In this document: positions 12,521 to 63,356 of the stretch, piece after piece
Layout of the letters: the number at the start of each line of letters is the position of its first letter
Position numbering within the stretch: the first letter of the stretch is position 1
From: a virus
Taxonomy: Duplodnaviria > Heunggongvirae > Uroviricota > Caudoviricetes
Strand: one strand, 5' to 3'
DNA length: 64,000 bases
Virus record (IMG/VR): IMGVR_UViG_2875697941_000001
Position numbers and translations under genes: made by a program
Notes under the pieces: model-generated
Database searches by the model: none
Seen by the model: only the letters and a program-made list of their open reading frames with translations
What the model was told of the DNA's origin: nothing

Positions 12521-14225
12521 TTACTCAGAGTCACCGGCATCAATCGTGTCGCCGCTAATGAAGTTAAGCCCGCCTTTTTTGGCCATTGTCAGCGTTACAC
12601 GAGTGAAGTAATCAGCGCCGTTGCGTGGGTGCATATCGTTGATAGCCGAACCCCACAGCGTGGTACGGTTGACCAGCGCCGGAGTGGTCGGATGCTGGAA
12701 CGGGATGGCCGGGACAGCATCACCAGTCACGAAGCCTGCTTTACCCGGATTTTCATCACGGACGTAGCACAGCACATCCATCGAGCTGAACTGAATGTTC
12801 TCTGTCGTTAAGTTCTTACAAATACCAGCAGGTACTTCGTACACTTTCACGTTACCGAACAGGGTACCGATGTAGTGAACATACGGAGTCTGGATATAGT
12901 CTTCGGCTGGCTGGAAGAAATCCTTCGGCAACTGTTTGAAGAAAGATGCTGCATCAGCACCAGCAAACATCCCCATCGCACCAGAAGATTTAACGCGCTC
13001 AATAATGTCGCGATATACAGTCTGGAATTTGCCACGAATGATGGTTGCCCATACATCAAAGGACTGGTTAACCGGCAGAGCGATGTCAAAGGTGTCGGTC
13101 GCAAGAGTGCGCCAGATCATGATGCGAAGACGCAGCATATCCTGTTCATGAGACAGGTATTCCTTCAGGGTGCGGAACTGTAGGGAACCCAGGTCCAGAC
13201 CAAATTCACGCTGTGCTTCATACGCCGCCTGTACCGTGTGCTCAGCCGCGATAACGAACTGACTTGGGAACAGGGTGTATTTCTTCATTTCGTGGTTGAT
13301 CAGCGGGATCAGCTCAGGAGCGGCTTCAATATTGATTTCCGTCTCAATTGCGATCTCAGTGCCTTTATCCGGCGCTTTGGAGAACGACAGGGCAATCTGA
13401 CCAATGTTGTAGTTCAGAGAGCAGGTAACAGTGATTTGCTCACCAGCAGCATTAGTAAACGAGTGAAGTAGGCTGCCGGAACCGTTATCAACAACAGACT
13501 TAATACGGTTAACGTAGATGTTAGTGCGACCTTTTCGGATTGGTACATTCTGGCCTTCGAAGTCTTCCATCTTGAAGGTTGCGGTTTTGCTGGTGCCATC
13601 GGAGCTTGCCACCAGCACATAGCGGCGACGTAACTGGCTGTACACACCGACGGATTGCATGTCCAGAACATCACCAGCAGCATAAGAACCAAAAGATGAA
13701 CCTGCCACGTTAAAGACTTCATAGATGTCGGACTGGTCACGCGTAACCGGAATGAAGGTACACGCATCAGCGGTAGCTGCCCCCAACTGAACAGGCAGGA
13801 TCATCGCGAGGAATAAAGGCAGACGCATAACACCGTCAGAAACGCTCATCATCTCTGCTGCGACAGATTCCAGCATCGCTTTATTAGTGGCATCCATGCT
13901 ATTGCGGGTGGACTCAATCAGGCAGTTTTCCAGCGTCTGGTGGCAGGAGGCCAGAATTTCCGGACGCGGCATAGATTTATGTGCTGCGGCGTAGTCAGCC
14001 AGTGCACTTGCCCACGCTGTAGCGATTTGAGCGGTGGCATTATCAGAGATACCCACAAAAACCGGGTCTTTACGTGCAGCTTCAAGGATAGATGCGGCAC
14101 GCGCGGCATCATCTTTAATGAATTGGTTATCAGTACCGAACTGCGCAGTGCTTGCCCAGCCAAGCACAGCTTTAGAGCGTTTTGCGATATCTGCAATACG
14201 ATTCTGGTATTCGCGTAAGTTACTC
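12521..14225 (-). CDS. putative major head protein (P1 gp23 position)
   Basis: ~568 aa from TTG start with AGGAAG RBS; position adjacent to parS/parB. Confidence 0.4.
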
Positions 14226-14354
14226 AATTTACTCTTCCTTAAACACAAGGCACTTGTGTGAATCCCTTTTCGGAAGAGATTTTATTGAAAGTCACTTGTT
14301 GACTTTCTCGTGACAAGCAATTTTTTTATTTTTTTCGGGAGTAGGGGAGGAAGG

Positions 14355-14445
14355 TAAAATCCAAGGTGAAATCGTGGCGATTTCACCTTGAAATTTTAGA
14401 TAGATTTACTTTAAAAACAGTAGGTTAATAGTGAAATTTGAATGG
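14355..14445. promoter_or_regulatory. parS: parS partition site
   Basis: Clustered ParB boxes GTGAAAT/ATTTCAC (heptamer) and TGGCGA (hexamer) immediately downstream of parB. Confidence 0.55.
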
Positions 14446-14452
14446 CGAAAGT

Positions 14453-15454
14453 TTAAGGCTTCGGCTTTTTATCGAGGCTCTTTCTAAGGATATGCCCAAT
14501 CATCCTGTCGAGTTCTTCCTGTAACTCTTTTGAGAGTCGATTAAACTCATAAGAAAATGCACGGCCTTTCACGCGCTTCCTTGCAAAGCGATCCTTGTCC
14601 TCAAATTTCCATAATTCAGTAACTACGGACTTATCTTTAGAACCTTTATCCGTGAGTAGTGAGGCTTCCTTTGTTATCAAGCGCAGGATTTTATTTTTAA
14701 CTTCATCTTCGGCCATTTCTTCAATGGATAAGATGTCGTTTATTTCCGGGGATATGTTTTGAATAAGCTGATCAAACTCTAAATTCTTGTTCCCCATTTC
14801 GTCGCCAACAGCACAAAGCGTTTTGTAGTCCGAAAAGGTTAATTCCGACTGCACAGGGAAAAGGGCGACTAATTCTTCCGGAGCACTCGCTGCCTGGAGA
14901 GCACGCGTGACCTTCGCCTGAGACAGCCCTTCTTTGGCTGCAATATCCTTCTGACTCATCCCATCATTTTTCATTCGCATCAAACGCAGACCTATTTCTC
15001 GAATGCTGTGCTGCAATGCTGTCTGAACGTCTTTCGCTAAATTTTGCGCTTCCTGAACGCTGATCTCCTGGTCCGTGACTAAAACCCGCAACCCTACGTT
15101 CTCTAAGATGGCAGAAGCTCGACGCCGGGAACCATCCAAAATTTCAATTTTCCCTGTAGCCCGTCTAACACCTATTGCAGGGTAAAATTGCTGATGCTTA
15201 ATAGTGCTTCGGATACTTTTTAATGATTTTGGCGTAAGAGATGCCTGGTCACGCCCGTTGTTATGCTGATCAACAAAGGTATCGCTTTCTACCTGGTTCG
15301 GAGGTATTACCTCTTCAATAAATGTGGCCTGGCGACCAGTTGATAACTTGAATACCTGCTCGACTCGATCGCCAGAGGCTGAAGAACTATCAAATCCGCT
15401 TAATATTGAAGGATTAAGGGTTCGCCCAATTGTTGGTCTGTTTTTCTTTGACAT
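14453..15454 (-). CDS. parB: plasmid partition protein ParB
   Basis: 333 aa; sequence and length match recalled P1 ParB (MSKKNRPTIGRTLNPSILSG...). Confidence 0.85.
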   Translation of the reverse strand: MSKKNRPTIGRTLNPSILSGFDSSSASGDRVEQVFKLSTGRQATFIEEVIPPNQVESDTFVDQHNNGRDQASLTPKSLKSIRSTIKHQQFYPAIGVRRATGKIEILDGSRRRASAILENVGLRVLVTDQEISVQEAQNLAKDVQTALQHSIREIGLRLMRMKNDGMSQKDIAAKEGLSQAKVTRALQAASAPEELVALFPVQSELTFSDYKTLCAVGDEMGNKNLEFDQLIQNISPEINDILSIEEMAEDEVKNKILRLITKEASLLTDKGSKDKSVVTELWKFEDKDRFARKRVKGRAFSYEFNRLSKELQEELDRMIGHILRKSLDKKPKP

Positions 15455-15470
15455 GGGGGTTTCTTACTCC

Positions 15471-16667
15471 TCAGTTAGATCTGATAAATTCAATACGGTC
15501 AAAAACTGCTTTAGCAAAATCTTCCGCGGCAATTCGCGCGTTCTTCAATGCATCAGCACTACCAACATACGTTGCCGGGTTAGCTGAAATAACAGTGTCA
15601 AAAGACTCGCCACAGCGTTCAAAACCGTCAAGGCGAGGGAGGACGACATCGAGCATATCCCCACCGAACACTTCTTTAGCCAGGCTATGGCAATACTTAT
15701 GGTCTGCCTTGTTACTCAATTTGGACATAAAACCAATGTTAGTCGCAAGCTGGCACTCGCAGCCTTCATCCGAAATGAGTTTCACCAACTCAGGAAGGCG
15801 GGCAACGTATTTAAGCGATGAGTGGAAATCAACCGTTGCAGGCGGCAGAGGTGTAAACAGTATATTGGCCGAGGCCAAAGCATTTTTCAGGAAGGCGTCA
15901 AGGTGAGGACCACTATCAACGAGGATAAAGTCATAATCGCTCTTCAGCTTATCAATCACATTTTCTTTCAGGACAGCATGGATGTTCTGACCCGGTAGAT
16001 GCTCATTGCACAGCTCTCTCCAATCGGATGCAATAAAGGCATCGTCAATCGACGCAGGCATAACGTCAACCCCAGGTACAACAGAAGGAACAATAAACTC
16101 CTCTAACAGCTCTTCACGGCTTACATTCTGCAACATAGCCTGTGCAGATGTTGCGTTTACGATACCAATAGAGTGTTTATGGCTTAAAAACATCGTTGCT
16201 GAAGATTGCGGATCAAGGTCAATAACCAGAATCCTTAAATCCTCCATAAGAAGATGAGGGTGAGCACGCATTGCATGCGCCAGAGAAACCGTCGATACAG
16301 TTTTTGACACACCGCCTTTAAGATTGGAGATGAAAATCACATACGCTTCGCTGTAGCGATCCCGGTATTTTGGCACTCCGCGATGTTCATATATGTCAAT
16401 GATGTTCTGAATTGACATCGCATATTTCATTGAAGAGCCAGCAGGGCGTTTATCGAAAACATAACCCTTTTCTTCCATTTCACTTACGGCATAGTCAACG
16501 TTCGCTCGAGTCAGTAGAGGCAATTTTGCCAGTGCCGCTTTCGCATAGACCTGGTAAAACTCGTTCGCGTGTAGCTCATCCTTTTGCAACTGTACTTGTT
16601 CAGTCAGAACATTGAGCATTCTGTTTGCTCTTTGAGCAACCTTGTGAAGCTGGCTGGAATCACTCAT
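15471..16667 (-). CDS. parA: plasmid partition ATPase ParA
   Basis: 398 aa; Walker A KGGVSKT; N-terminus MSDSSQLHKVAQRANRMLN matches recalled P1 ParA. Confidence 0.9.
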   Translation of the reverse strand: MSDSSQLHKVAQRANRMLNVLTEQVQLQKDELHANEFYQVYAKAALAKLPLLTRANVDYAVSEMEEKGYVFDKRPAGSSMKYAMSIQNIIDIYEHRGVPKYRDRYSEAYVIFISNLKGGVSKTVSTVSLAHAMRAHPHLLMEDLRILVIDLDPQSSATMFLSHKHSIGIVNATSAQAMLQNVSREELLEEFIVPSVVPGVDVMPASIDDAFIASDWRELCNEHLPGQNIHAVLKENVIDKLKSDYDFILVDSGPHLDAFLKNALASANILFTPLPPATVDFHSSLKYVARLPELVKLISDEGCECQLATNIGFMSKLSNKADHKYCHSLAKEVFGGDMLDVVLPRLDGFERCGESFDTVISANPATYVGSADALKNARIAAEDFAKAVFDRIEFIRSN

Positions 16668-16805
16668 CGAAAGTCATCCTTTATGCTGTATTTTTGAATT
16701 TACTTAAAAATGCTGCATAAAATAATAATGTATGCACAGATGCTTGTACATAGCATTCTCTGCATGTTTGGTTCATTTTGCACGATTGAGAGTTACAAGG
16801 AGGAC

Positions 16806-16830
16806 ACAAAAAAGCCCCGTTCAGGGGCAT
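16806..16830 (-). terminator. rho-independent terminator
   Basis: Minus-strand hairpin GCCCCTGAACGGGGC followed by TTTTTT, immediately 3' of the 16836..17645 gene. Confidence 0.6.
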
Positions 16831-16835
16831 CAGTG

Positions 16836-17645
16836 TTATTTGCTAAGAGCAGCGAATAATCGTTCGAAATCGATAGTATCTATAGCACGCGTAAGCGCCG
16901 GAAGTTCAGCCTCAAAGTACCCGTGTCGATCGTAAAAGAAGGGACCGAAGAGCGAGGCATGTTGGATTCTACTTCGCCCCAGCCCGGACACACAGTTAAG
17001 CCCATTACCGGCTAAAAGGCTAAAAAACTTCTCTGGATTATCGTGGTAAAGCTGGGAATCAATGGTGGCGGTTAACTCTTCCATAGGGAAGCACACCCGC
17101 CTTGTCTCCCAGGGATATTTAGTCCGAAGCATAAACATTGCTTTCAGCAATTCACATTGAGCGCGGATCGCGTCCGGTTCATAGCCAGATATGGAGACAT
17201 AAGCCATGTCCCTCATTCCTGCGTCATCTTTGAAAGTCACGATAGAAGTAACATCCAGCTCTTTTTCGAAAGAGCGAGCAGCATCTACTGGACGCTGAAG
17301 TAAATCATTCGACTTAATGCGCTCGAGAATCCCTCCCCACATATCATTTAGATATTCGATATGAGCCAAAACCTTATCAAGACACTCTCGTGTAAACCAT
17401 TCAGTATGCCCGCCACCGGCGCTTTTCTCCCACGGCGCATTCCAGGGGAAAAAGGTTGCGTGTAAAGCCCGCTCAAGATTAACTATTGCCAATCGCGTAC
17501 CACGATAGACCCGTGAAAGCGCAAAATCGGGACTCACTTGTAGCCCTTTAAACCGTGCCAATGGACCACATGAAATGCCGATTTTAAAAGTATCTCCATT
17601 CTCCGGCACCAGAACGTAGAGGTAGTGTTGTTTCTCTTCTTGCAT
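16836..17645 (-). CDS. T5orf172/GIY-YIG-like domain protein
   Basis: 269 aa; N-terminus HYLYVLVPENGDTFKIGIS with downstream conserved R and E resembles GIY-YIG/T5orf172; inserted between incA iterons and parA promoter. Confidence 0.45.
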   Translation of the reverse strand: MQEEKQHYLYVLVPENGDTFKIGISCGPLARFKGLQVSPDFALSRVYRGTRLAIVNLERALHATFFPWNAPWEKSAGGGHTEWFTRECLDKVLAHIEYLNDMWGGILERIKSNDLLQRPVDAARSFEKELDVTSIVTFKDDAGMRDMAYVSISGYEPDAIRAQCELLKAMFMLRTKYPWETRRVCFPMEELTATIDSQLYHDNPEKFFSLLAGNGLNCVSGLGRSRIQHASLFGPFFYDRHGYFEAELPALTRAIDTIDFERLFAALSK

Positions 17646-17659
17646 ATCAATACCACTGC

Positions 17660-17950
17660 TTGATGAGAACCGCGCAAATGTTGACTATGCGCGAAAGTTA
17701 ATGTGAATAGTTGACTATGCGCGATGTGACTACAGTCAAAAGTTGACTGTAGTCGATTTAACTCCACCAAAGATCGACTATGTAAGATATTGTCGGGAGA
17801 AACGTTGACTATACGCGATGAAATGACCCTAAAAGCCATCTCAATAGCGACTTGCAGAATATTGACGCCAGCAAAAATCCACCAGCGTCAACGAATGTCG
17901 CCTATAGTCAACTTCTCGCTATCGCATATAGTCAATATTATGGATTGCGC
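17660..17950. repeat. iteron array downstream of repA (incA-like)
   Basis: About 9 copies of a TTGACTATGCGCGA-like unit in both orientations. Confidence 0.6.
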
Positions 17951-18822
17951 TTATGGATCTGGAAGCCGATTTTCCTGCCGTTTTTTATCTCTGAAAATTT
18001 AAGATATTCAATAGCTTCCAAATCTTTCATGGCTTTTCTGATAACGCTATTTTGCACGCTAACGGATGATTTGAGATTAAGCCTTGCTCTAAGGCGCTCA
18101 ATGCTGACAGGTGCCGGGTTGGCGGGTAGAGCCTCAAAGAATGTATACAGTACCTTGGCCGTCTCTTTGCGCCCGAGCTTATCCAGCATCTTCAGCTTCA
18201 GGATTCGCTTATAGTCAACATAGTAAAGTTCAGATAGCTGTTTCTGCGGCTGGATCTCGATAACATCAAGCTCGGTATTCAGGCTGCTATATGCCAACAA
18301 GTTGACGTTAATGTTATTGAGATGACCTTTTGCTGCCGGGAAGCGGAATTTGACAACTGTCTGCTGAATGCGTGTCAGAGAGTCATCAATACTTTTACGG
18401 AACGCCTTTGAAAGGCGCTTACGTGGATAGCCGCATCGATCGGCAAACTCGGAGAATGGCAGGGTGATTATGCCGTCATCATCAGGTGCGTAGTCAAACA
18501 ACGCGGAGGTTATGCCCACCCACACCTTAAAATCAGTATCCATATCCAGGCGTGGACCATGAATTTCAATTCCCTCATAGCCTTCCTGCTCAACAATTTT
18601 GAGGCTTGATAGTTCTTCGGTTGCGTTCGTTGTGTTTGTAGTAACTGACGATCCGCGACGTAGTGCCACATTGGTAGATTTTAAGGTTGGCACAAACACA
18701 CCTAAGCGCAACAAAGCGATGGGTTGTATAGTGCTATTGTTATTGGGTTTCAGGCTGTGGATTTCTCCTGTATTTCCTGCAACTTCTTCAACGCTAAGGA
18801 AGCCTTTATTTTCTTCCGGCAT
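17938..18822 (-). CDS. repA: iteron-binding replication initiator RepA
   Basis: ~294 aa from MPEENKG; flanked on both sides by iteron arrays; P1 incC-repA-incA architecture. Confidence 0.7.
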   Translation of the reverse strand: MPEENKGFLSVEEVAGNTGEIHSLKPNNNSTIQPIALLRLGVFVPTLKSTNVALRRGSSVTTNTTNATEELSSLKIVEQEGYEGIEIHGPRLDMDTDFKVWVGITSALFDYAPDDDGIITLPFSEFADRCGYPRKRLSKAFRKSIDDSLTRIQQTVVKFRFPAAKGHLNNINVNLLAYSSLNTELDVIEIQPQKQLSELYYVDYKRILKLKMLDKLGRKETAKVLYTFFEALPANPAPVSIERLRARLNLKSSVSVQNSVIRKAMKDLEAIEYLKFSEIKNGRKIGFQIHKRNP

Positions 18823-18884
18823 CGTGGTTTCTCCATATGTGGCGCGGCCTGGCGTCATCTGGATTGCAGTTATCAACAACTGTG

Positions 18885-19000
18885 AATAGTCAGGCTCTAA
18901 AATCGCGTACAGTCAATGTTTCTGTCGCGTATAGTCAACAATAAATCGCGTGCAGTCAACAATAAATCGTGCACAGTCAACATAAAATCGCGTATAGTCA
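18885..19000. repeat. five direct iterons upstream of repA (incC-like, origin)
   Basis: Five ~20 bp direct repeats AAATCGCGTATAGTCAAC. Confidence 0.65.
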
Positions 19001-19115
19001 ATGTTGATCCCATTTCAGGCCAGAAATGGCGCGGCTTACAGCGATCCGGGATCTTCTTTGGATCTTCCTAGGTTCTCTTTGGGATCTGTTTATTGGATCT
19101 ATGCTGTGGATAAGT
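19001..19115. promoter_or_regulatory. oriR-like region: GATC cluster and DnaA box
   Basis: Six GATC sites within ~100 bp and a perfect DnaA box TGTGGATAA at 19106-19114, next to the iterons. Confidence 0.5.
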
Positions 19116-19156
19116 TGAATAAACCGGCCAACAAAGCCGGTTGGAAGGAAGCCATA

Positions 19157-19549
19157 TTATTCTACGCTTTCGATGAGAAGACCATGTTCATAGCATTTAA
19201 GCTCATCGCCCTCGTACAGGAATTGGTATCCAATACCACCATCTTCATGGACATTAGGGAATAACTCATCACTTACCGAAGAACAAATCACACCAATGCA
19301 GCGATCAACGCCTTCTCGTTCTTCAGTGCTGAAAAAATCCTCTTCGGTAAGAACATGAGTACATTGCTCATCAGCATAGGTCGGAAATACATGCTCAATG
19401 CAATCCGGGTGTTTTAAACCAAGCTGATCGGCAAGCTCGAAAGCACGACGGTATTGTTCAGATCCTGGCTTGCCAACAGTGATTTGCTCAATTTTGTAGA
19501 TTGAAGTCGCTTTGTTGATAGTTTGCTTTACTGTTACTTTATCAGACAT
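19157..19549 (-). CDS. hypothetical protein (P1 upfA position)
   Basis: 130-aa ORF; context only. Confidence 0.35.
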   Translation of the reverse strand: MSDKVTVKQTINKATSIYKIEQITVGKPGSEQYRRAFELADQLGLKHPDCIEHVFPTYADEQCTHVLTEEDFFSTEEREGVDRCIGVICSSVSDELFPNVHEDGGIGYQFLYEGDELKCYEHGLLIESVE

Positions 19550-19560
19550 AAAAATCCCTT

Positions 19561-19812
19561 TTAGTTACCGCTAATAGCTCGGTTGTAATCATTAACGTTG
19601 CGATTCTTCCTGTTAATCCCCATCAGCATCGTTTCTGTATCGAGGATATACGCTGGCAGATCATCAAAATATTCACTGCTAAACTCTGGCATCCTACACA
19701 TAAATGCACTTTTGGGGGCAGGGTGGTTAACCTTTGTCGGCGTCGGCGTTAAATTCGCTGATCGACTCCCGGAGCAACCGCTGAGTGTCAGCAGGAATAC
19801 GCTGGCGAACAT
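19561..19812 (-). CDS. small lipoprotein, o-spanin-like
   Basis: Start at internal Met; lipobox LLTLSGCSG followed by Pro/Thr-rich TPTPTKVNHPAP; overlaps 3' end of upstream gene in another frame. Confidence 0.4.
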   Translation of the reverse strand: MFASVFLLTLSGCSGSRSANLTPTPTKVNHPAPKSAFMCRMPEFSSEYFDDLPAYILDTETMLMGINRKNRNVNDYNRAISGN

Positions 19813-20149
19813 TACCCGCCGCAACCAGTTGTTTCTGAACTTCAGCTTTTCGTTCCATTTGCCTGTCAGCATACTTGGCTTGTTCTGATTCATTTTTCAC
19901 TTCCTGGCTGTGAAAATGTTGCTCTGCTTTGTTCATCGTCTCAATGGTCTGGTTAAGATCCATTATTGACTTATCACGTTCCTTAACAGCCTGATCAAGA
20001 CTGCCAATTTTCTCTATGGCTTGCTTTAGCTGATGACGTTCCCATGCAAACCCAGCACCAACAAGTGCGCAAATCAGAACAAGAACACCAGTAGCAGCAA
20101 GTTTCTCCTTCAAAGACAAAGCTGTTTTTAACGTAGAAAAGAATGACAT
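19727..20149 (-). CDS. membrane-anchored coiled-coil periplasmic protein, i-spanin-like
   Basis: N-terminal TM helix (ATGVLVLICALVGAGFAW) then charged coiled-coil; overlaps lipoprotein gene like Rz/Rz1. Confidence 0.4.
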   Translation of the reverse strand: MSFFSTLKTALSLKEKLAATGVLVLICALVGAGFAWERHQLKQAIEKIGSLDQAVKERDKSIMDLNQTIETMNKAEQHFHSQEVKNESEQAKYADRQMERKAEVQKQLVAAGNVRQRIPADTQRLLRESISEFNADADKG

Positions 20150-20188
20150 GTCTTCCTCCTGAAGAAAAATTATCAATGAAGTCCTTTG

Positions 20189-61241: not shown

Positions 61242-61406
61242 ATGCAATATGCCATTGCAGGGTGGCCTGTTGCTGGCTGCCCTTCCGAATCTTTACTTGA
61301 ACGAATCACCCGTAAATTACGTGACGGATGGAAACGCCTTATCGACATGCTTAATCAGCCAGGAGTCCCAAAGAATGGATCAAACACTTATGGCTATCCA
61401 GACTAA
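61242..61406 (+). CDS. cIII: CIII (FtsH inhibitor)
   Basis: 54 aa MQYAIAGWPVAGCPSESLLERITRKLRDGWKRL...; matches lambda CIII. Confidence 0.8.
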   Translation: MQYAIAGWPVAGCPSESLLERITRKLRDGWKRLIDMLNQPGVPKNGSNTYGYPD

Positions 61407-61518
61407 ATTCACTATCGCCACTTTTATTGGCGATGAAAAGATGTTTCGTGAAGCCGTCGACGCTTATAAAAAATGGATATTAATACTGAAACTGAGATCA
61501 AGCAAAAGCATTCACTAA
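61375..61518 (+). CDS. kil: host-killing protein Kil
   Basis: 47 aa [47 protein letters not shown]; matches lambda Kil. Confidence 0.75.
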
Positions 61519-61591
61519 CCCCTTTCCTGTTTTCCTAATCAGCCCGGCATTTCGCGGGCGATATTTTCACAGCTATTTCAGGAGTTCAGCC

Positions 61592-61888
61592 ATGAACGCT
61601 TATTACATTCAGGATCGTCTTGAGGCTCAGAGCTGGGCGCGTCACTACCAGCAGATCGCCCGTGAAGAGAAAGAGGCAGAACTGGCAGACGACATGGAAA
61701 AAGGCCTGCCCCAGCACCTGTTTGAATCACTCTGCATCGATCATTTACAACGCCACGGGGCCAGTAAAAAAGCCATTACCCGTGCGTTTGATGACGATGT
61801 TGAGTTTCAGGAGCGCATGGCAGAACACATCCGGTACATGGTTGAAACCATTGCTCACCACCAGGTTGATATTGATTCAGAGGTATAA
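61592..61888 (+). CDS. gam: RecBCD inhibitor Gam (short form)
   Basis: 98 aa [21 protein letters not shown]...; matches lambda Gam. Confidence 0.9.
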
Positions 61889-61893
61889 AACGG

Positions 61894-62679
61894 ATGAGTA
61901 CAGCACTCGCAACGCTGGCTGGGAAGCTGGCTGAACGTGTCGGCATGGATTCTGTCGACCCACAGGAACTGATCACCACTCTTCGCCAGACGGCATTTAA
62001 AGGTGATGCCAGCGATGCGCAGTTCATCGCATTGTTGATCGTCGCCAACCAGTACGGCCTTAATCCGTGGACGAAAGAAATTTACGCCTTCCCTGACAAG
62101 CAGAACGGCATCGTTCCGGTGGTGGGCGTTGATGGCTGGTCCCGTATCATCAATGAAAACCAGCAATTTGATGGCATGGACTTTGAGCAGGACAATGAAT
62201 CATGTACATGCCGGATTTACCGCAAGGACCGTAATCATCCGATCTGCGTTACCGAGTGGATGGATGAATGCCGCCGCGAACCATTCAAAACTCGCGAAGG
62301 CAGAGAAATCACGGGGCCGTGGCAGTCGCATCCCAAACGGATGTTACGGCATAAAGCTATGATTCAGTGTGCCCGTCTCGCCTTCGGATTTGCTGGTATC
62401 TATGACAAGGATGAAGCCGAGCGCATTGTCGAAAATACCGCATACACTGCAGAACGTCAGCCGGAACGCGACATCACTCCGGTTAACGATGAAACCATGC
62501 AGGAGATTAACACTCTGCTGATCGCCCTGGATAAAACATGGGATGACGACTTATTGCCGCTCTGTTCCCAGATATTTCGCCGCGACATTCGCGCATCGTC
62601 AGAACTGACACAGGCCGAAGCAGTGAAAGCTCTTGGATTCCTGAAACAGAAAGCCACTGAGCAGAAGGTGGCAGCATGA
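61894..62679 (+). CDS. bet: single-strand annealing protein Bet (Red-beta)
   Basis: 261 aa; essentially identical to recalled lambda Bet. Confidence 0.95.
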
Positions 62680-63356
62680 TACCGGACATTATCCTGCAGC
62701 GTACCGGGATCGACGTGAGAGCTGTCGAACAGGGGGATGATGCATGGCACAAATTACGGCTCGGCGTCATCACCGCTTCAGAAGTTCACAACGTGATAGC
62801 AAAGCCCCGCTCAGGAAAGAAGTGGCCTGACATGAAAATGTCCTACTTCCACACCCTGCTGGCTGAGGTTTGCACCGGTGTGGCTCCGGAAGTTAATGCT
62901 AAGGCGCTGGCCTGGGGAAAACAGTACGAGAACGACGCCAGAACCCTGTTTGAATTCACTTCCGGCGTGAATATTACTGAATCCCCGATCATCTATCGCG
63001 ACGAAAGTATGCGCACCGCCTGCTCTCCCGATGGTTTATGCAGTGACGGCAACGGCCTGGAACTGAAATGCCCGTTTACCTCCCGGGATTTCATGAAATT
63101 CCGGCTCGGTGGTTTCGAGGCAATAAAATCGGCTTACATGGCCCAGGTGCAGTACAGCATGTGGGTGACGCGAAAAGATGCCTGGTACTTTGCCAACTAT
63201 GACCCGCGTATGAAGCGTGAAGGCCTGCATTATGTCGTGGTTGAGCGGGATGAAAAGTACATGGCGAGTTTTGACGAGATGGTGCCGGAGTTCATCGAAA
63301 AAATGGACGAGGCACTGGCTGAAATTGGTTTTGTATTTGGGGAGCAATGGCGATGA
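62676..63356 (+). CDS. exo: lambda exonuclease Exo (Red-alpha)
   Basis: 226 aa; essentially identical to recalled lambda Exo. Confidence 0.95.

Follow-up and report, generated by a model that had tools for sequence, protein, structure and literature searches.

A predicted GIY-YIG nuclease gene in the exchangeable replicon cassette of P1-like phage-plasmids

Phage-plasmids of the P1-like group with a p0111-type replicon carry, between the control iterons of that replicon and the promoter of the par operon, a stand-alone gene (ORF269) for a two-domain protein with a T5orf172/GIY-YIG catalytic domain. Computational analysis established its fold, catalytic signature, cassette position, synteny in four cassette types, hypervariability and dispensability. 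As judged by comparing sequences, ORF269 is an old resident of an exchangeable replicon module and not a recent homing insertion. Of the roles considered, one in conflicts among elements that are related or share a host cell is the most likely; replication and partition do without the nuclease. P1 is the textbook model of iteron-controlled plasmid replication and partition.

The gene has been recorded before: PGAP annotates its product as ‘GIY-YIG nuclease family protein’, and there is an earlier mention of it as an unknown gene of the p0111 region. No paper listed in our literature search brings GIY-YIG nucleases together with P1-like phage-plasmids. What appears to be new is its place as a conserved yet hypervariable component of an exchangeable replicon cassette with at least four types; the prediction of an initiator-like winged helix, the data on dispensability and the parallel with the phage nuclease Odn appear new as well.

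The window, meaning the whole stretch of 64,000 nucleotides that was analysed, is a p0111-type P1-like phage-plasmid, p0111 being a replicon type described in PMC9603915. The phages RCS47, SJ46 and JL22 are 99% identical to it over the replicon/par region, and its positions 1-24846 are 100% identical to Escherichia coli plasmid pYLMB49b (NZ_CP073955.1). PLSDB types pYLMB49b as IncHI1B (MOB-suite), and the sole initiator in the 42 kb inspected is a p0111-type RepA; the dmt region of this plasmid is broken by ISVsa5 just beyond the end of its alignment with the window. At 2219-3594 the window has non-homologous DNA in place of the P1 simABC superimmunity region, encoding on the minus strand a secreted coiled-coil protein (2247-2786, 179 aa; annotated as DUF5384 in pYLMB49b) and a glycine-zipper lipoprotein (2790-3311, 173 aa).

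Table 1. Features of the replicon cassette and the adjoining par operon in the window
Feature	Coordinates	Strand	Basis or remark
parB	14453-15454	-	protein 100% identical to P1 ParB
parA	15471-16667	-	protein 99.7% identical to P1 ParA
P1 par promoter (Ppar)	16722..16750	-	P1 homology begins ~20 nt upstream of the -35 hexamer
Replicon-specificity cassette, p0111 type	16770..19018	-	blastn against P1; replaces P1 nt 61316-62806
Intrinsic terminator of the nuclease gene	16805..16828	-	G+C-rich hairpin, then T-run; fold z-score -3.1
ORF269, stand-alone two-domain nuclease gene, 269 codons	16836..17645	-	ATG start; stop codon 16836-16838
C-terminal hypervariable domain, aa 105-269	16839..17333	-	without sequence relatives; predicted winged helix
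N-terminal T5orf172/GIY-YIG catalytic domain, aa 1-104	17334..17645	-	Pfam match, invariant residues
incA-like control iterons	17680..17936	.	six copies of TCGCGYATAGTCAAC (15-bp core), four of one orientation, two inverted
repA, p0111 type, 294 aa from ATG 18822	17938..18822	-	weak Rep3_N/Rep3_C matches; start as in RCS47 annotation
Five origin iterons, incC equivalent	18903..19002	.	21-bp spacing; abut retained P1 DnaA-box/GATC part of oriR

The cassette is read on the minus strand, from origin iterons through repA and the control iterons to the nuclease gene and its terminator (Table 1). The first-pass annotation had put the gene between incA-like iterons and the par promoter, which is correct; its interval of 16806-17660 simply takes in the terminator. 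It had also credited the gene with a terminator of its own, and a hairpin with a T-run is indeed found at 16828-16805. This terminator shields Ppar from transcription arriving from upstream. The gap between the last control iteron and the ATG of ORF269 is 34 nt.

The iteron core of the window is TCGCGTATAGTCAAC, unlike the IncY type of P1 with its 19-bp iterons. The 64-kb window has 12 iteron matches, where 1.2 would be expected by chance, and every one of them lies inside 17680-19002. A single iteron-like site, 18205-18219 (TCGCTTATAGTCAAC, one mismatch), lies within the repA coding sequence, apart from both arrays. The program-made list opens the repA reading frame at TTG 18879 (17938-18879, 313 aa); comparison with a related locus (L003, below), P1 and RCS47 supports a start at ATG 18822, giving 294 aa.

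Comparison with P1 changes the picture of an insertion into a repA-incA-par layout that the first-pass annotation had drawn, since the whole replicon differs. By blastn, P1 homology stands at 99.4% identity in one flank (14000-16769) and 97.4% in the other (19019-20500); between them nothing can be aligned to P1 except 59 nt inside repA. Here 2249 bp of the window replace 1491 bp of P1, namely the incC iterons, repA, incA and spacer that make up the IncY cassette. P1 sequence is kept in the DnaA-box/GATC half of oriR and in Ppar, so the exchanged unit is exactly the replicon specificity part plus the nuclease gene and its terminator. The two replicons are laid out alike, with origin iterons, then repA, then control iterons; they also share the DnaA-box/GATC part of oriR and have identical par genes. 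They differ in RepA (42% identity), in iteron sequence, and in the extra nuclease gene and terminator ahead of Ppar.

No direct repeat flanks ORF269, which answers in the negative the target-site duplication that the first-pass annotation had raised, and neither tblastn nor blastn-short found a remnant of the gene in the incA-Ppar spacer of P1; a target-site duplication or discrete insertion was rejected on these grounds. Foreign composition was rejected too, the GC content of ORF269 being the same as that of the neighbouring genes.

The p0111 cassette was found in 404 PLSDB plasmids and the protein in 401, each at 90% identity or more; no p0111 cassette without the nuclease gene was found among the 404. 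No gene occupies this position in IncY plasmids, of which 218 PLSDB records hold at least 80% of the P1 cassette region in one piece, and in the P7-type par plasmid inspected parA follows directly after incA. The statement that the gene is missing from the P1 layout therefore holds, and extends to P7-type IncY plasmids. As to a presence/absence polymorphism, the gene is absent from IncY P1/P7 types, but the difference spans the full 2.25-kb cassette, which leaves no clean empty site to compare; three other cassette types, one of them with P1-type iterons, carry orthologues. IncY plasmids with parA and parB of P7 size (401 and 321 aa; NZ_CP122909.1, 2180-4645) lose P1 homology exactly at incA iteron 1. 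Such a par swap at the edge of the iteron array (compare window position 16770) indicates that the incA/par junction is a general module boundary.

A phmmer search of 1.84 billion representative proteins returned only three full-length relatives of ORF269, all in P1-like elements: P0004 (44% identity), P0010 (28%) and P0011 (25-30%). About 75 further proteins are related in the N-terminal domain only. All three full-length relatives are encoded between a repA with iterons and the parA of other P1-like elements; the loci are L003, the Salmonella enterica loci L078 and L079, and L080 (Cronobacter sakazakii). L003 has the iteron type of the window and a RepA 83% identical, L078 combines iterons of P1 type with a RepA that shares 83% identity with that of P1, and L080 has a third iteron type, with a hairpin and T-run likewise 3′ of its nuclease orthologue. 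No other cassette type was found in PLSDB or among GenBank phages, which hold the p0111 version only. Genome and metagenome scans gave the same version or N-domain-only relatives, besides a 78-kb contig (L077) whose protein is 28% identical to P0010.

The backbones of L078 and L003 share 97-98% nucleotide identity, and their cassettes are swapped with the same boundaries as between the window and P1. Exchange of the cassette as one piece is thus seen in two backbones independently. From the window to L003 the divergence of the cassette (~71% nt) equals that of the backbone, which points to long co-residence rather than recent transfer or frequent homing. The P1-like and p0111-like replicon types are each present in two backbones that are only ~70% identical, RepA being 83% identical within a type across backbones; such a pattern suggests that the polymorphism of replicon type is old and has been maintained.

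These results bear on the proposal that a homing endonuclease recently inserted itself into the replication/partition control region of P1. Presence versus absence relative to P1, membership of the GIY-YIG family and a free-standing gene with its own terminator would all suit it. The flanks, however, are not of P1 type, with repA and iterons entirely different; there is no flanking direct repeat, GC anomaly or P1 remnant; and orthologues only 25-44% identical occupy the same site, a sign of ancient residence. We consider a recent insertion highly improbable. The non-P1 replicon, the lack of repeat, remnant or compositional anomaly, and the diverged orthologues at the same position together argue that ORF269 has long resided in its cassette.

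The first-pass annotation recognized a stand-alone T5orf172/GIY-YIG gene of 269 aa, and its reading is upheld by the open reading frame and by a Pfam match to T5orf172 (PF10544) at residues 8-85, whose score of 26.8 bits exceeds the gathering score of 20. ORF269 also matches the endonuclease family phrog_681 (1e-9), while the full-length protein corresponds to PHROG 2876, a family without assigned function in PHROG. The N-terminal domain has the alpha/beta fold of GIY-YIG nucleases. Residues Y10, K21, G23, R31, E58, E82 and W83 are invariant in an alignment of 69 homologues, and the catalytic signature positions are unaltered in all 67 population alleles. The domain thereby shows the conserved signature of its clan, with Tyr in strand 1, K/Y-I-G in strand 2, Arg in helix 1 and acidic residues. 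SLX1/UvrC-type GIY-YIG nucleases are cellular repair enzymes; unlike them, ORF269 has no RING or UvrC partner domain and no sequence-level membership of that group.

The remainder of the protein had been left unassigned, rightly: its ~165 residues match no known sequence family. Searches of the C-terminal domain against Pfam and PDB sequences, and a profile search of 5.8 billion proteins, gave no match outside its own family. An hhalign comparison with a RepA profile gave a probability of 0.2%, and there is no match to Rep, RepA_N or DUF6945, whereas Odn itself does match DUF6945. Pfam finds no CapR, DUF723 or DUF4397 Zn-finger module in it either. On the hhalign, PDB sequence, Pfam and profile searches a RepA-derived DNA-binding domain was rejected at the sequence level. 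When viral models were searched with Foldseek, the domain matched best a plasmid replication initiator of COG5527 (E 2.5e-3), and its fold matches include several origin/oriT binders, iteron initiators and plasmid Reps, with moderate scores. A winged helix is predicted for the domain; as to an initiator-like character, the models are only suggestive.

The nuclease gene evolves much faster than its neighbours. Across the split between the window and L003, RepA keeps 83% and ParA 89% identity against 44% for the nuclease, whose N-terminal domain keeps 64% and C-terminal domain 32%; between cassette types the C-terminal domains are 15-23% identical. In a population sample of 67 gap-free copies, the nuclease gene has a pN/pS of 0.31, compared with 0.023 for repA, 0.004 for parA and 0.054 for parB. 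Premature stops occur in eight of the 67 nuclease copies (12%), at three independent codons (W68*, S112* and Q228*), leaving 59 intact; the population copies of repA, parA and parB have none. Nonsense alleles Q228* or S112* are found on three full-size P1-like elements with intact repA and parA, one of which is Salmonella phage SJ46 (L039; the others are L012 and L020). A database cluster (P0003; 229 member sequences) holds 168-aa products starting at M102, which suggests that forms of the nuclease without the N-terminal part are common.

Taken together, these population and divergence data indicate a real gene that is still constrained, dispensable for maintenance and repeatedly lost. Its dispensability follows from its absence from IncY P1/P7, the nonsense alleles and the raised pN/pS. 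The same features (12% nonsense alleles, raised pN/pS, absence from IncY elements) could describe a decaying passenger gene with no current function. Against decay, pN/pS does not come near 1, most alleles (59 of 67) are intact, and fold, length and catalytic residues have been retained over ~70-75% sequence divergence in four lineages, so that we hold a functionless passenger to be quite improbable.

In all four cassette types the ATG of the nuclease gene lies 20-34 nt past the last control iteron and is preceded by a weak Shine-Dalgarno sequence. No convincing sigma-70 promoter of its own was found, nor any C1 operator or P1 late promoter within 16600-19100; a strong promoter of its own, a C1 operator and a P1 late promoter near the gene were accordingly rejected as candidates. 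With the ATG just past the iterons and no such control, transcription would have to cross the RepA-bound array or start within it. Most likely the transcript arises by read-through from the RepA-autoregulated repA promoter. In that case expression of the nuclease would occur mainly at times of RepA shortage, such as entry into a new cell.

We weighed whether ORF269 is cargo for anti-phage defence or superinfection exclusion, attacking unrelated phages or causing abortive infection, with the cassette site merely a convenient module junction. The absence of C1 or late-promoter control, which would probably allow expression in the plasmid state, agrees with this, as do quick divergence and frequent loss, both typical of defence genes. 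Distant N-domain relatives have surroundings of an accessory or defence-like kind, namely Mrr_cat/WYL/Ymh islands, regions with toxin-antitoxin genes, and a mobilisable plasmid. These relatives are not tied to replicons and so carry little information on the ORF269 locus. PADLOC, however, matched no family to ORF269 or its relative P0004, and NCBIfam gave no defence match either; the gene stands single, with no sensor partner; and the full-length family was found only at one iteron-adjoining slot in four cassette types, which is unexpected for generic defence. A defence role seems unlikely to us.

The constancy of that slot could instead reflect a domesticated accessory factor of the replicon, whose winged helix would bind the control iterons, Ppar or RepA and, with or without nicking, modulate copy number or handcuffing or couple replication to partition. 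The position right after the last control iteron is invariant in four cassette types, the nuclease gene moves together with repA and iterons, the fold of the C-terminal domain resembles Rep WH1 domains, and the T5orf172-related CapR works as a repressor (PMC10448857). Yet the window and L003 have the same iterons and RepA proteins 83% identical while their C-terminal domains are only 32% identical, which argues against an intrinsic role in replication control. IncY P1 and P7 function without the gene, elements of full size such as phage SJ46 bear nonsense alleles of it, and the catalytic signature is fully kept. We regard an accessory factor as distinctly improbable.

The closest experimentally studied parallels to ORF269 are the T5orf172 nucleases of the ICP1/PLE system. 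In Odn (ICP1 gp88) an initiator-like DNA-binding domain directs cutting of the iterons/origin of a rival (PMC8263062). In an alignment of the two proteins E58 of ORF269 pairs with Odn E180 and E82 with Odn E202; the Odn substitution E180A was designed to abolish catalysis (PMC8263062). Compared with Odn and the Odn-like T5orf172 nucleases of coliphages Inny, Muut and Mt1B1_P17 (PMC8263062, PMC10448857), ORF269 likewise has a T5orf172 domain with the same conserved residues; the domain is fused to a predicted winged helix whose likeness to initiator DNA-binding domains is suggestive only. As with Odn, the setting would be an arms race over modular replicons (initiator plus iterons), and inactivated alleles are frequent. 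The order of the domains in ORF269 is reversed, its C-terminal domain has no sequence similarity to Rep proteins or RepA_N/DUF6945, and it is encoded in a plasmid replicon cassette whereas Odn is encoded in a lytic phage.

Free-standing homing genes offer a second comparison. Those of the T5orf172 group are located at genetic-exchange boundaries and are frequently frameshifted, and most have Zn-finger DNA-binding modules (PMC10448857). Like the homing genes of ICP1 and the Seg genes of T4, ORF269 is a stand-alone intergenic gene beside essential genes at an exchange boundary, with a weak ribosome-binding site and a patchy or degenerating distribution. Unlike them it has no CapR, DUF723 or DUF4397 Zn fingers and has been kept at one locus through deep divergence.

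The combination of a catalytic module with a hypervariable winged helix, the link to the replicon, dispensability and the parallels with Odn and homing genes lead us to favour, tentatively, a DNA-guided nuclease aimed at rival elements. The GIY-YIG T5orf172 module would provide catalysis and the fast-evolving winged helix would bind DNA and supply target recognition, so that the nuclease would cut the DNA of a rival lacking the cassette or of another invading element. The rival would then be eliminated, as by Odn, or recombinational repair would copy the nuclease gene and the linked replicon cassette, as in homing. Several observations weigh against a role in conflict: the swap boundaries are those of any homologous recombination and do not prove nuclease-driven exchange, the match between cassette and backbone divergence fits vertical residence better than frequent homing, simple relaxed constraint would account equally well for a pN/pS of 0.31 and the nonsense alleles, and ORF269 shows no C-domain sequence similarity to Rep proteins and no Zn-finger modules. 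The swap boundaries, the lack of Rep similarity and of Zn fingers, and the stable residence at one locus also speak against placing ORF269 within the families of Odn or of the homing genes. A more specific form of the rival-directed nuclease is doubtful, namely a replicon-linked incompatibility weapon whose winged helix, being Rep-like, would direct cleavage to iterons or control regions of competing P1-like replicon types; on a meeting of two phage-plasmids in one cell the rival would be destroyed or converted, which would drive and maintain the IncY/p0111 polymorphism in two diverged backbones.

P1-like phage-plasmids matter as carriers of resistance genes of the ESBL and mcr kinds; about half of those from E. 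coli have the p0111 cassette (PMC9603915). If the nuclease acts on rival replicons or other invaders, it would supply a molecular mechanism for competition between phage-plasmids and for the exchange of modules among them. It would help to explain the coexistence of two replicon types, and would extend the principle of Odn, a nuclease joined to an initiator-like DNA binder, from conflicts between phage and satellite to conflicts between plasmids. Even if ORF269 is only a dispensable selfish gene, the limits of the cassette that it marks show which specificity part of oriR can be exchanged.
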